This document shows positions 307 through 30,666 of a DNA stretch of 64,000 nucleotides, piece by piece (the stretch's first letter is position 1; each line of letters starts with the position of its first letter). The translations under genes and the position numbers were made by a program. The notes under the pieces are model-generated. The model was given only the letters and a program-made list of their open reading frames with translations, was not told where the DNA came from and did no database searches. The stretch is taken from contig CAWCFJ010000008.1 in NCBI GenBank assembly GCA_963794695.1, forward strand, positions 435,590 to 499,589. The letters are read 5' to 3'. Source of the stretch: an uncultured Actinomycetes bacterium (GTDB taxonomy: Bacteria > Actinomycetota > Thermoleophilia > Gaiellales > JALYLC01).

Positions 307-1114
307 TCAAGGCTCCACCAGGATGGCGCGCAGCGCCGCCTGGTCGTCCGCGTCGATCCCGAGCCCGTCGGCGAAGTAGCGCTCGATCGTGCCGTGCCTG
401 GTGCGCAGCTCGTCGAGCGCGCTGTCGAGGTACCCGGGCTCGACGCCGAGCACCGGCGTGAGCAGGTCCGGGTCCCCGCCAAGCTCCTGGAAGCGGTCGA
501 TGATCGGCTTCAGCGCTGGCAGCAGGTCGCGGTTGGTGAGCAGGAAGTCGGTGCGCACGTCCTCCTCCGAGACCCCGCACAGGAGCAGGATCGAGGCGCT
601 GCCCCAGCCCGCCCGGTCCTTGCCGGTGGTGCAGTGGAAGAGCGCCGGGCGGCTGTCGCCGTCGAGGAACCGCCGCCACATCGCCCCGTAGGCCGCGCGG
701 GCGCTCGGGAGCGAGACCAGCTCGCGGTAGGCGTGCTGGAACAGGATCTCGGCCTTGCCGTCGCCGATCAGGTCGCGCGCCAGGGCAGGGTCGTCGAGGA
801 TCTTCGCGAGCTGGGCCGGAGCCATGTCCTTCGAGTCCGCGAGCACGTCGCAGACCACGCCCTCGACGCCGTCGGGCAGGTGGTCGGGCCCGGCGCTCGC
901 GCTCGTCGGCCGTCCGCAGGTCGAACACCGTGTGCAGGCCGAGCCCGCCGACCAGCGCCACGTCGCCGCCGGCGAGGCGGTCGAGCGCGGTCGAGCGGTA
1001 CAGGACGCCGTGCCGGATGCGGCCGCCGTCGGCCGTGGGCCAGCCGCCGAGGTCGCGCAGGTTGAGGAGCGTGGCGACCACGATGTGGGCGCCCGGCTCG
1101 GTCTTCGTCGACAT
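307..1114 (-). CDS. Tyrosine-protein phosphatase (Y_phosphatase3/IphP-like), one frameshift
   Basis: NLRDLGG, LYRS and DLRT in one frame; P-loop HCTTGKDRAG in another frame. Confidence 0.85.
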
Positions 1115-25218: not shown

Positions 25219-25415
25219 TCCTCGTCCTCCTGCGCGTCGCGGGCGCCCTGGCGGGCCCGGTCGAGCTCCTGGGTGGCCTCGAGCGCCAGGTCGTTGACCT
25301 CGCCCATGAGCGACAGGGCCTTGTCGGGGTCGGCGCTCGCGTCGTCGAGCTGGCTGCGCAGCGCCTCGAGCCGCGCGAGCAGGCTGCGCAGGCGCTGCTC
25401 GTCGGCCTCGCTCAC
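25215..25415 (-). CDS. Small coiled-coil protein, XseB-like
   Basis: 66 aa helical hairpin in the usual xseB position between nusB and ispA. Confidence 0.5.
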
Positions 25416-25831
25416 CGGCCCGTCCCCTCCTCCCGGGCGATCCGTCCGAGGACGCCGTTCACGAACACCGCCGCCTCGGGCGAGGCGTAGCGCTTGGCCA
25501 GCTCCACCGCCTCGTCGATCACCGCCGGGACCGGGATGTCCGGCCGCGTGGTGAGCTCCCAGGCCGCGAGCCGCAGCACCGCCCGCTCGACCGCGCCGAG
25601 CCGGTCGCTCGTCCAGCCGGTGGCCGCCGCGTCGAGCCGGCCGTCGAGCTCGGGAAGGGCGGCGGTCACGCCGTCGACGACCTCGCGGGCGTACGTCGGG
25701 ATGGGCTCGCCGGTGTCGGCGGCGTAGCGCTCGAACAGCGCCTCGAAGGGGGTCGAGACGACGTCGTGCTGGTAGAGCAGCACGAACGCCGCGCGGCGGG
25801 CCTGGCGGCGGGAGACGACGCGCTGGCTCAT
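25412..25831 (-). CDS. nusB: Transcription antitermination factor NusB
   Basis: RRQARR..LYQ, IDEAVELAKRY, FVNGVL. Confidence 0.93.
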   Translation of the reverse strand: MSQRVVSRRQARRAAFVLLYQHDVVSTPFEALFERYAADTGEPIPTYAREVVDGVTAALPELDGRLDAAATGWTSDRLGAVERAVLRLAAWELTTRPDIPVPAVIDEAVELAKRYASPEAAVFVNGVLGRIAREEGTGR

Positions 25832-25842
25832 CAGGCCGGACC

Positions 25843-27198
<1,356 letters not shown>

Positions 27199-27199
<1 letters not shown>

Positions 27200-28986
27200 C
27201 AGGCCGGGCTGATCTCGAAGAGCGTCTGGCCGAACTCGACGGGCTCGGCGTTGCCGACCAGGATCTTGCGGACGGTGCCGGCGTGATCGGACTTGAGCTC
27301 GTTGAACAGCTTCATGGCCTCGAGCACGCACAGCGTCTGGCCGACCTCGACCCGGTCGCCCTCCTCGACGAACGCCGGCTGGCTCGGCGACGGCGCCCGG
27401 TAGAACGTGGCCACCATCGGGCTCTCGACGAGGACGAGGTCCTCGGCGGGCGGCGCGGCCTCGGCCGGCGGCGTCGGGCCGTTCGTGGCCTGCTCGACCG
27501 GCGCGGCGGCGACGTACTGCACCGCCGGCGCGGGCTCGGGCTTTCGCAGCGTGTAGCGGACGCCGCCGTCGTCGACGGTGATCTCGTGCAGGCTGGACTC
27601 GTCCAGCATCCGCATGAGCCGGCGGATCCGCTCGCCCTCGGAGTCGTCCACCACCGCGGCCTCGTCGCCGGTGGGCATGCGCCGGCCGCGCAGCGTCGAG
27701 AGCAGCGGGAACGCGCTCTCGCCGAACAGCGCGACGAGGCACAGGTCCTCCTCGGAGGCGGCCAGCGTGCCGGCCTCGGCCTTCGCGTCCTCGAGCGAGG
27801 TCTGCGGCTCGGTCTGGGCCGGCGTGCGCTCGGCGACGGCCCGCGCGGCGGGGTCGACGGGAGTCGGCGGATGGCCGTACTCGCCGACCAGCAGGCGCCG
27901 CATCTCCTCGTCGACCATCTCCCAGCGGCGCGCCGTCAGCACGTGCTGGATCGCCTGGGAGGCCAGGATCCGCCCGACCGGCGAGGCCGGCGGAGGCGAC
28001 CCGGCGTCGGCCCGCACCCGGTGCAGCTCGTCGAGCACCTCGTCCACCCGGTCGCCGGCGCCGACGGCCTGCAGGCGCCGCTCGATGCCGGCGACGAGCC
28101 CGGCGGGGATGGTGTTCAGGGCGGCCCGCAGGGCGACGTTCGGGGAGACCGGCGGCTGCGAGCCCGCGGCCTCGCCGATGTCGGACTCGATCAGCCGGGC
28201 GACCTCCCAGGCGGCCTGGCGGTCGAGCCCGTGGTCGAGCTTCAGCCCGCCGAGGGCCTGGGCCAGGAGCTCGGCCGGCACCCGGTGGGTGAGCATCGCG
28301 ATCGGGTAGGAGGCCGTGGCGATCGGATCCGCGCCCGCGCGGGCCGCCTCGATGGCCACCGCGAGGCTCGTCCCGCCGGCGCCCTGGGTGTACAGGCCGA
28401 CCGGGATCCGGGCGACGTCGCGCATGCGGCCGATCAGCTCGCCGGCGGCGGCCGGGTCGAGCGCGCCCGCGGGGTCGTGCAGCAGCACCCGCTCGGCGCC
28501 GAACGCGGCGAGCTTGCCCGCCCGCTCGACCAGCGACTGGACGCCGGCGGCGTCGCTGTAGACCAGGCCGGCGTGCAGCTGGGCGCCCGCCTCGCGCACC
28601 GCGTCGGCCGGCCCCTCGAGGTCGTCGACGTCGTTCAGCGGGTCGTTCAGCCGGAACACGTCGATCCCCGACTCGGCGGCGACCAGGATGAAGCGGCGCA
28701 CGAGCTCGGGGTGGGCCGGCTTCATGCCGACCAGGAACGTTCCGCGCAGGGCCATCACCAGCGGCGTCTTCGGCGCCCGCGCCTTGATCGCGCGGATCCG
28801 CTCCCAGGGGCTCTCGACGGCCCGCTCGACGGCGCTCTTGAAGCAGCCGCCGCCGGACACCTCGAGCCCGGCGTAGCCGAGCTCGTCGAGGCGCTCGGCC
28901 ACGCGCAGGAGCCGCGCCGTCGACAGGGACCCGGCGAGCGGGTCCTGCGACAGCAGGCGGATGGTCGTGTCGACGAGTCGCGTCAA
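27199..28986 (-). CDS. accB: Biotin carboxyl carrier protein fused to a degenerate PycB/OadA-type carboxyltransferase domain
   Basis: 595 aa. N-terminal TIM barrel (LEVSGGG, PWERIR, LRG, GIDVFR) plus conserved-carboxylase domain; C-terminal SPMVATFYRAPSP...EAMKLFNE. Confidence 0.88.
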
Positions 28987-28999
28987 GTGCGGTGCGCGC

Positions 29000-29566
29000 T
29001 CAGGCGCGCGAGAGGTAGCGCCCCTCGCGCGTGTCGACCTTGATCCGGTCGCCCTCGTTGACGAACAGCGGCACCTGCACGACCGCCCCGGTCTCGAGGG
29101 TCGCCGGCTTGGTCACGTTCGACACCGTGTCGCCCTTCACCCCGGGCTCGGTCTCGGTCACCGCGAGCTCGACCGAGGCCGGCAGCTGCAGCGACGAGGG
29201 CCGCCCGTCGAGGCTCAGGAGCTGCACCACGTCGTTCTCCTTGACGTACTGCATCTCGTCGGCCACCCCCTCGCGCGGCAGCTCGATCTGCTCGTAGGTC
29301 TCGGTGTTCATGAGGACGACGTTGGTGCCGTCGTCGTACAGGAACTGCATGTCGTTCACCGAGGTGTGGACGCGCATCATCGTCTCGCCGGCCCGGAACG
29401 TCTTGTCGACCGTCTTGCCGGTCTCGACCGCCTTGAGCTTGGTGCGCACGAACGCGCCGCCCTTGCCCGGCTTGACGTGCTGGAACTCGACGATGCGCCA
29501 GATGACGCCGTCGACCTCGACGTGCATGCCGTTCTTGAACTGGTTCGTGGAGATCGTCTCTGCCAT
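29000..29566 (-). CDS. efp: Elongation factor P
   Basis: [23 protein letters not shown]. Confidence 0.97.
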
Positions 29567-29570
29567 CTGC

Positions 29571-30666
29571 CTATCCCGCGTCGACCAACGATTTGGGGAA
29601 CTTCGAGAGCACCTCGTGCCCGCCTTCGGTCACCACGACGAGGTCCTCGATGCGAACGCCGAAGCGACCCGGAAGGTACACGCCCGGCTCGACCGTCACG
29701 ACGTTCCCTGGCTCGAGCACCCCCGAGACCCCGGCCCGCAGGCGCGGCTCCTCGTGGACTGCGAGCCCGATGCCGTGCCCGGTTCCGTGCCGGAAGTGCT
29801 CACCGTAGCCGGCCTCGCCGATGATCCGCAGCGCCGCCTCGTGCACCTCGACGCACGGCGTTCCGGGCCGGACCAGGGCGAGCGCGGCCTCCTCGGCCCG
29901 CAGCACGAGCTCGTAGACCTCCTTCATCTCCGCGTCCACCGGCCCGCTCGTGAAGGTGCGGGTGCAGTCGGAGCAGTAGCCCTCGACCAGCCCGCCGATG
30001 TCGATCACGACCAGCGTGCCGCGCTCGATCTCGACGTCCCGCGGCTCGCCGTGCGGCAGCGCGCCCTGGCTCGCCGAGGCCACGATCGGCCGGAACGCCG
30101 GCCCGTCGGCGCCGAGCTCGCGGAAGCGGACGGCGATCTGCCAGGCGACCTCGCGCTCGTTGCGCCCGCCGAGACCCTCGTCGGCGAGCCACTCGTACAC
30201 CTGGTCGGTGATCCGGGCGCCGCGGGCGATCCGTTCGAGCTCGTCGGCGCTCTTGACCGCCCGCAGGGCCTCGACGACGCCGACGCGTGGGCACGAGCCG
30301 CGCGCCGGCGGCGTCGGCGGCCGCAGCGAGCTGCACGAAGGCCTGGTGCGAGACGTGGGCCGACTCGAAGCCGATCGACTGGCCGGGGCGGAACAGGTCG
30401 CCGAAGCGCTCGGCGAGCGACCCGACCAGGTTCGTGTCCACGACCTGGACGTTCCAGCGCTCGCGCAGGTGGGCCACGGCGGTGGCGTAGCGGAAGTCGG
30501 TCAGCAGGGCGCCGCCGCCGGGGGTCACGCAGAGCAGGCCGTTGGAGCCGGCGTAGCCCGACAGGTAGCGCACCGAGATCGGGCTCGTGACCAGCAGGGC
30601 GTCGAGCTCGTGCTCGGCCAGCGCCGCGCGCAGGCGGTCGGCACGCTGGCCGGTGGCGACGCTCAT
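29571..30666 (-). CDS. Xaa-Pro aminopeptidase (M24), one frameshift
   Basis: [38 protein letters not shown]. Confidence 0.92.

Follow-up and report, generated by a model that had tools for sequence, protein, structure and literature searches.

Heteromeric acetyl-CoA carboxylase (ACC) is considered to consist of four proteins, among them a small carrier that is not fused to any other. In the two-subunit pyruvate carboxylase of Methylobacillus flagellatus, an alpha2beta4 holoenzyme, the core is made up of beta subunits (PMC5059739). Here, we report the analysis of a gene with affinities to both systems that was found in an uncultured Actinomycetes bacterium of the order Gaiellales (class Thermoleophilia), in a stretch of 64,000 nucleotides that is referred to below as the window (GenBank assembly GCA_963794695.1, contig CAWCFJ010000008.1, positions 435,590 to 499,589 of the forward strand). 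In the predicted product, AccB, the biotin carboxyl carrier protein (BCCP) of ACC, is preceded by a carboxyltransferase (CT) domain related to that of pyruvate carboxylase, in which the residues of the metal site have been replaced and which is nevertheless retained under strong purifying selection.

The gene is one uninterrupted open reading frame (ORF) of 595 aa in the slot between efp and accC-nusB where accB is expected, as a preliminary description of the window had claimed and as the ORF list and the neighbouring genes bear out. The efp stop codon lies 13 nt upstream and the TGA of the fusion gene overlaps the ATG of accC as TGATG. About 430 N-terminal residues had been assigned to the fold shared by PycB, OadA and transcarboxylase 5S, and this assignment holds for residues 1–434, which gave Pfam matches to HMGL-like (3–266, 43.2 bits) and PYC_OADA (291–425, 61.6 bits) and phmmer alignments to 5ks8_C (3.4e-62), 2nx9_A (1.5e-53) and 1rqb_A (3.6e-44). 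The best Foldseek match was to 5ks8_D (1.9e-40), and 1rqb and 2nx9_B were matched with a TM(target) of 0.84. The AlphaFold2 (AF2) model, built from a 105-row alignment (mean pLDDT 91.3, pTM 0.76), consists of a barrel and helical body (1–434), a floppy stretch (437–447), a helix and hairpin (448–481), a disordered linker (490–513) and a beta-sandwich (518–594) with strands of pLDDT >90. When scored against NCBIfam profiles, the protein remained below the cut-off for PycB (NF006761, 360.3 bits, cut-off 402) and far below that for OadA (TIGR01108, 289.9 bits, cut-off 756.5), and it also fell short of NF010645 (196.6 bits, cut-off 1182).

The C-terminus is a full AccB, again in agreement with what had been described from the helical N-domain, the Pro/Ala linker and the motif EAMKLFNE. 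It exceeds the cut-off of the BCCP equivalog TIGR00531 (128.9 bits, cut-off 115.2; 132.1 bits in a genome-wide scan), with residues 453–593 covering positions 5–155 of the 156 in the profile, and it matches 4hr7_B over residues 452–590 (2.5e-27) and Pfam Biotin_lipoyl over residues 520–592 (69.2 bits). Both EAMKLFNE (556–563) and SPMVATFYRAPSP (522–534) are present. The segment RAPSPSQPAF (530–539), which is included in the TIGR00531 and 1bdo matches and lies between the first biotinyl strands, may correspond to the AccB-specific 'thumb' of Escherichia coli AccB.

The fusion is the sole BCCP above the TIGR00531 cut-off and the single PYC_OADA match in this genome (G000), though 'only AccB' here has to be read as 'only one found' because the assembly, in 15 contigs, is just 75 % complete, and this tells against a claim of exclusivity. 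In five of five genomes scanned, intact lineages (see below) included, the fusion was the lone TIGR00531 match over the cut-off and an AccA-type CT (>380 bits) was present. In G000, an accD-like Carboxyl_trans match and an AccA-type match (381.7 bits) adjoin each other on contig C3 (G000:C3:469365-470890, outside the window), in long open frames of 699 and 691 aa. Two acyl-CoA carboxylase sets, on contigs C13 and C1, have their own fused biotin carboxylase (BC)-BCCP subunits. Because these other BCCPs are fused to their own BC and there is only one TIGR00531 match, the fusion is the only carrier found that could serve a heteromeric ACC. Hence, to judge from sequence and gene content, the fusion protein is the AccB carrier of ACC, its carrier function being predicted.

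The catalytic site of the CT-like domain is degenerate. In the phmmer alignments to 5ks8, 2nx9 and 1rqb, the motif (L)RD(A/G)HQS is replaced by IRLLSQD (RLLSQD being residues 10–15), IKDMA by LHDPA (169–173), HxH by YTQ (199–201) and TPTSQ by SPVGR (335–339). The aligned D, K, H and H are the metal ligands of pyruvate carboxylase, and the T is its catalytic Thr. All four ligands have been replaced (D by L11, K by H170 and HxH by Y199/Q201), and the position of the Thr is occupied by S335. The alignments therefore uphold the earlier reading of RLLSQ, HDPAG and YTQ as loss of every ligand with the scaffold motifs kept, the latter being LEVSGGG (41–47), PWERIR (60–65) and LRG (80–82).

The same substitutions are found in other members of the order. 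In each of 15 Gaiellales loci, the residues at D/K/H/H are L/(H,M,Q,N)/(Y,F)/Q, and among 121 aligned rows (the fusion and its 120 closest database homologs) R-L-L-x-Q occurs in 117, the remaining four being truncated at the N-terminus. The Lys position was H, Q, M or L among the 116 rows listed, the HxH position was [YF]xQ in all 115 rows listed, and EAMKLFNE is present in 119 of the 121 rows. At the position of the catalytic Thr, the most frequent residue in 131 Gaiellales sequences is Q, at 0.40. Three residues that align with the substrate-binding Arg/Gln/Arg of pyruvate carboxylase, namely R10, Q14 and R81, are kept in all 15 loci and are invariant in the 131 sequences. On these alignments, the CT-like body is predicted to be unable to hold the catalytic metal as active members of the family do, and with the metal site lost pyruvate carboxylation by the Gaiellales fusion protein would be gone.

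The 120 best database homologs are 54–95 % identical to the fusion, nearly all are 574–596 aa long, and they share its architecture. The names given to the Gaiellales proteins in the source records are 'oxaloacetate decarboxylase alpha subunit', 'acetyl-CoA carboxylase biotin carboxyl carrier protein' and 'biotin/lipoyl-containing protein'. The fusion and its substitutions thus recur in related genomes: the fusion was found in 34 of 41 order-level genomes, comprising all 34 of families f1, f2, f3 and f5 (G000 and G012 included), and in 11 of 11 loci its neighbours are efp and accC. No fusion was found in the seven f4 genomes, which are 77–88 % complete and gave weak biotinyl-domain matches alone. 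The preliminary description had seen no stop codon or frameshift between the domains, and the CT/AccB junction (nt 27639–27684) is indeed crossed without gaps by soil-metagenome contigs of relatives from other studies (Table 1). The source organism itself was not found in the sequencing runs, as no run contained >22 % of the sampled words; the RNA runs X19 and X20 contained 5 %.

Ratios of non-synonymous to synonymous substitution (dN/dS) were calculated by the NG86 method for six close pairs. They were 0.04–0.10 for the CT barrel and 0.03–0.155 for the PYC_OADA part, and 0.23–0.41 for the AccB N-domain with the linker and 0.04–0.29 for the biotinyl domain. Values of 0.29–0.78 obtained for G000 against L022/L023 were set aside, as these proteins share ~67 % identity and dS is likely to be saturated. 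The dead CT domain is under strong purifying selection and is retained, not decaying. It has the properties expected of a pseudoenzyme, namely loss of the catalytic residues, purifying selection and an uninterrupted frame in 34 genomes, and it still has some role.

Intact relatives of the fusion occur elsewhere in the class. In a class-level sample, matches of 32–39 % identity were found in 20 of 20 genomes in each of families f6, f7, f8 and f10, and were rare or absent in f9 (1/11), f11 (0/8) and f12 (0/1). The matches in f6, f7 and f10 span the full length, and the f8 genomes divide into 11 with a full-length or split match and nine with no more than CT-length matches. The order efp-fusion-nusB is found in all 14 class-level loci, and in 12, all but the f7 loci L036 and L045, accC separates the fusion from nusB. 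In these two (genomes G057 and G042), the fusion is intact, its carrier motif is EMMKMMNE, and the single accC of the genome is located elsewhere. A fully intact site, with RDxHQS, KDMA, HCH and TPMSQ, is found in the same slot in 13 loci from f7, f10 and f8. Seven f6 loci retain the Asp and have lost the other ligands, and five f8 loci read S/K(R)/D/D at the ligand positions (L041, L052, L055, L056 and L057, with R in L057 and HxH replaced by DxD), a form that could, from its residues, bind another metal rather than be dead. Outside the class, an intact CT-AccB fusion is present in a Syntrophomonadaceae metagenome-assembled genome (P0128), and two further database proteins with this architecture are degenerate (P0137, D/M/H/H; P0154, D/K/S/K).

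Homologs with intact RD, K and HxH, which the preliminary description had named as grounds for rejecting its reading, therefore do exist, in sister families; the Gaiellales loci are all dead. Because the intact gene occupies the same slot in these families, the dead domain is the derived state of a once-active fused enzyme and no new accessory. Of the earlier picture of a pseudo-enzyme retained as a keto-acid sensor, scaffold or biotin-arm dock, the retention stands, on the barrel dN/dS of 0.04–0.10, and the sensor or dock is putative. Gene content is also informative for the intact lineages. Three of their genomes (G057, G042 and G070) have one BC match each in the whole genome, and all 13 intact-fusion genomes have one CT-type match (query match at E ≤1e-15). 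As the BC and the BCCP are single and AccA is present, we infer that the acetyl-CoA transferase and the pyruvate transferase of these organisms have to share a single BC and a single carrier.

Phylogenetic analysis was less straightforward. In a tree of the whole protein, all of the degenerate clades group together (Shimodaira–Hasegawa-like approximate likelihood ratio test (SH-aLRT) support 97), and an approximately unbiased test on the whole protein rejects monophyly of f8 (p 0.0003). Both results speak against repeated loss of the site, and it may be that there was a single loss followed by gene replacement at the locus. In the tree of Efp, AccC and NusB, on the other hand, the dead f8 locus groups with intact f8 (SH-aLRT 100) and Gaiellales with f6 (91), and in the tree of the AccB part dead and intact f8 are together (97) and Gaiellales are again joined with f6 (91). 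We read the whole-protein grouping as attraction between fast-evolving CT domains, and it follows from this reading that there was one loss within f8 and one or two in the line leading to Gaiellales and f6. Hence, the CT site has probably been lost two or more times, with the domain kept each time.

Other routes for carboxylation were sought in the same genomes. Phosphoenolpyruvate carboxylase (PEPC) is present in G000, where its match is split, profile positions 470–845 ending at C8:34818 and 846–919 continuing from 34820 in another frame (outside the window), which is possibly another indel of the kind considered below for accC. In the class sample, PEPC was found in none of 60 genomes of f7, f8 and f10, in 10/18 of f3, in 6/20 of f6 and in 6/11 of f9. 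In some Gaiellales, a second locus combines PPDK-like genes with those for a small BCCP and for an intact CT of 479 aa. In L033 (G005:C5, 5-4467), L034 and L035, this locus includes a protein with a PEP-utilizers domain, one with a PPDK_N domain and a small BCCP with a VMK motif, and the 479-aa CT retains K, HxH and T in each of the three loci, with the RD present in L033 and L034 and unmatched in L035. This cluster was not found in G000. Two f8 genomes with a dead fusion (G125 and G043) have an intact CT-only paralog of 503–530 aa, and six f6 genomes have matches of the size of single-chain pyruvate carboxylase. We infer a hand-over of anaplerosis to PEPC, though the pattern is incomplete, as seven of the 18 f3 genomes, and likewise f6 genomes G134, G041, G051 and G122, have neither PEPC nor a second CT-type match, which counts against it.

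The explanation that we favour, at about even odds, is that the CT-derived domain has become a non-catalytic, architectural part of the ACC biotin carrier. The ancestor would probably have been a fused hub carrying biotin for carboxylation of both acetyl-CoA and pyruvate. In the lineage of the Gaiellales, the metal site and with it pyruvate carboxylation would have been lost and PEPC would have taken its place, while the fusion carrier would still work with the downstream AccC and with the AccD/AccA-type CT genes on another contig to form malonyl-CoA. The carrier, and via the AccB N-domain also AccC, would be fixed in a defined oligomer by the CT-derived body, in the manner of the CT core in two-subunit pyruvate carboxylase, and the body would have been kept because carrier and AccC rely on it for assembly. 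An architectural role would account for retention of the domain through what were probably two or more independent losses of the site. Among the findings that weigh against this explanation are that in the G000 assembly accC, which is to work with the carrier, has a frame break and that the catalytic face is conserved, which is not obviously needed by a pure scaffold and fits a binding site.

The conserved face leads to the strongest competing explanation, which we consider possible but distinctly less probable, that the remodelled CT cleft is a regulatory pocket which binds a C3/C4 carboxylate, for example pyruvate or oxaloacetate, or its own (carboxy)biotin arm and thereby tunes the delivery of carboxybiotin to AccD/AccA, which corresponds to the sensor or dock of the preliminary description. 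When the 131 Gaiellales sequences were compared with 15 intact ones, 101 positions were conserved in both sets, including R10, Q14, R81, D115, N118 and D171, so that the pyruvate-binding positions are among those retained; 35 positions were fixed differently, including L11, G47, C48, F84, H114, P116, Y199, Q201, G202 and G338; and 68 were relaxed in the dead clade. L11, F84, G47 and Q201 are invariant clade-specific replacements. Within residues 1–430, the catalytic face accounts for 63 of the 430 residues and for 15 of the 34 fixed clade-specific changes (odds ratio 5.7, Fisher p 1.3e-5), an enrichment that is a pointer only, as the face was defined after the list had been inspected and conservation of strand ends is common to all barrels. 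No other part of the dead domain is as highly conserved as this face (33 of its 63 residues are ≥95 % conserved), and the barrel equals the biotinyl domain in its low dN/dS. However, there is variation at the positions of the catalytic Lys and the catalytic Thr and in a nearby loop (H170 0.87, and so unfixed; residue 335 0.40, among the relaxed positions; residue 339 0.59), and the hydrophobic and aromatic replacements at the lost metal site may simply stabilise the barrel. Moreover, degenerate f6 and f8 keep the domain yet have lost Q14 and often R81, and for this reason a pocket function cannot explain retention in general.

In a broader reading, which we hold to be rather improbable, the fusion would be a class-specific hub, in which one BC and carrier feed two unrelated transferases, and in the Gaiellales the pyruvate site would have been converted to a non-catalytic Arg/Gln/Arg pocket that docks the biotin arm or senses a C3/C4 acid, coupling malonyl-CoA synthesis to central-carbon status.

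It is less probable still that the domain remains an enzyme, acting on another acceptor substrate or by a chemistry that is metal-independent or relies on different ligands. The strong purifying selection would be expected of an enzyme, a conserved polar cleft is present (H170 0.87, Y199 0.95, Q201 1.00, D115 and D171 1.00), and the regular S/K/D/D of the degenerate f8 clade could bind another metal. However, all characterised members of the barrel superfamily use, to our knowledge, a divalent metal held by D/K/H/H ligands, the positions of the carbamyl-Lys and the catalytic Thr drift within the clade, and G000 has N114 where 95 % of the clade have H. That the gene is a decaying relic, or an artefact of assembly joining two genes, is suggested by the frame breaks nearby in accC (near 26761-26766) and pepP (near 30270) but is scarcely credible, given the same uninterrupted architecture in 34 genomes and >120 database proteins, the independent metagenome contigs that span the junction gap-free and the dN/dS of 0.04–0.155 for the CT-like parts.

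The features of the locus are listed in Table 1. The BC gene downstream of the fusion is of the AccC type by profile search, and in three relatives NF006367 (AccC) gave 634–646 bits against a cut-off of 597. In G000, residues 1–145 of accC end with ...GVEHAR and the remainder begins with GAIAGEAGYPV one base off frame. The two pieces match positions 1–144 and 147–445 of the AccC profile, and accC is therefore complete apart from the break. The break is probably an assembly indel. One contig in each of runs X1 and X2 lacks one base at 26761, but the metagenome contigs on accC come from relatives of 90–99 % identity and cannot settle the matter for G000. In pepP (Xaa-Pro aminopeptidase), upstream of efp on the minus strand, there is a change of frame at about position 30270 of the window, with ...GARLVPT in one frame and ...YEWLADEG further on in another. 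Two frame breaks within 4 kb suggest indel errors in the assembly.

Table 1. Features of the fused CT-AccB gene, its flanking genes and the metagenome contigs that bridge its junction (positions in the window)
Feature	Residues	Position	Strand	Evidence or comment
Whole fused gene	595 aa	27199..28986	-	TTG start at 28986, TGA stop 27199-27201; ORF list and full-length homologs
CT-like (beta/alpha)8 barrel	1-275	28162..28986	-	Pfam HMGL-like, phmmer, AF2, Foldseek; metal ligands lost
Codon L11, position of metal-binding Asp (R-D-x-x-Q)	11	28954..28956	-	L in 15/15 Gaiellales loci
Codon H170, position of carbamylated Lys (K-D-M-A-G)	170	28477..28479	-	Varies in clade (H/Q/M/L/N); H 0.87 of 131
Codons Y199-T200-Q201, position of H-x-H	199-201	28384..28392	-	Y 0.95, Q 1.00 of 131
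Helical C-terminal part of CT fold, including S335	276-434	27685..28161	-	Pfam PYC_OADA, phmmer, AF2
Low-confidence linker before AccB N-domain	437-447			AF2
AccB N-terminal domain (helix 448-463, hairpin 468-481)	448-481	27544..27645	-	TIGR00531, 4hr7_B, AF2
Pro/Ala-rich flexible linker	482-517	27436..27543	-	AF2 pLDDT <50 at 490-513
Biotinyl domain, EAMKLFNE	518-595	27202..27435	-	Pfam, 1bdo 1.8e-21; biotinyl-Lys K559 codon 27310-27312
efp		29000..29566	-	Directly upstream of fusion
accC (biotin carboxylase)		25843..27199	-	Start overlaps fusion stop; two frames, 1-base break near 26761-26766
nusB		25412..25831	-	Directly downstream of accC
X2 record 13		27623-27753		1 mismatch; bridges junction
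X1 record 5		27598-27798		Bridges junction
X4 record 29		27512-28168		Bridges junction

In a whole class of Actinomycetota, the carrier is welded to a pyruvate carboxylase transferase, and one abundant soil order keeps the transferase as a dead, tightly conserved domain. This raises the questions of whether one BC/BCCP pair serves two carboxylases and of what role a former active site has after catalysis is lost. No CT-AccB fusion, intact or dead, was found described in the literature searched, which covered sources other than subscription journals and included PMC5059739, PMC3199775 and PMC6544083, and no experimental study of the intact fusions was found there.

The closest described system is the beta subunit of the two-subunit pyruvate carboxylase of M. 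flagellatus (5KS8), which gave the best match in both sequence and fold. Like the fusion, it has a CT barrel, then a helical part and, at the C-terminus, a biotinyl domain, and a separate BC is encoded adjacent to it. The fusion differs in having other residues at the positions of all four metal ligands and of the catalytic Thr, and its C-terminal 140 residues are a complete AccB and not a BT-like segment followed by a BCCP of the pyruvate carboxylase type; the BCCP of 5ks8 matches it with an i-Evalue of 0.025, compared to 1.8e-21 for E. coli AccB (1bdo). The AccC beside the fusion ends at ~450 aa; for the M. flagellatus alpha subunit, a C-terminal helix is described (PMC5059739).

With AccB of the E. 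coli type (4HR7 chain B, 1BDO), the fusion shares the score above the equivalog cut-off, the EAMK motif and the place directly upstream of accC, but it adds a CT-like domain of 434 aa at the N-terminus of a protein that is otherwise ~156 aa. The CT of OadA from Vibrio cholerae (2NX9) and transcarboxylase 5S (1RQB) have the same barrel and helical domain. However, the fusion lacks the metal ligands, falls far short of the OadA profile cut-off and has no adjacent genes for the decarboxylase beta and gamma subunits. As both the defining ligands and the score cut-offs fail, the fusion should not be named OadA or PycB. Many records carry the name 'oxaloacetate decarboxylase alpha subunit', and metabolic models of Gaiellales that were built on it would wrongly assign a sodium pump or pyruvate carboxylase.

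The intact sister fusions (f7, f10, part of f8, and P0128) have the same architecture and an AccB-type carrier; they are 32–39 % identical to the dead fusion in full-length comparison, and those of Thermoleophilia also occupy its slot. They keep RDxHQS, KDMA, HxH and TPxSQ and look, from these motifs, catalytically competent.

The BADC proteins of plants (bioRxiv 10.1101/2023.08.31.555777) are non-biotinylated BCCP look-alikes that are reported to restrain heteromeric ACC. As in the fusion, a catalytically inert relative of a biotin-enzyme component is associated with heteromeric ACC. However, in BADC it is the carrier itself, as a separate protein, that is dead, whereas the Gaiellales fusion combines an intact carrier with a dead transferase domain.

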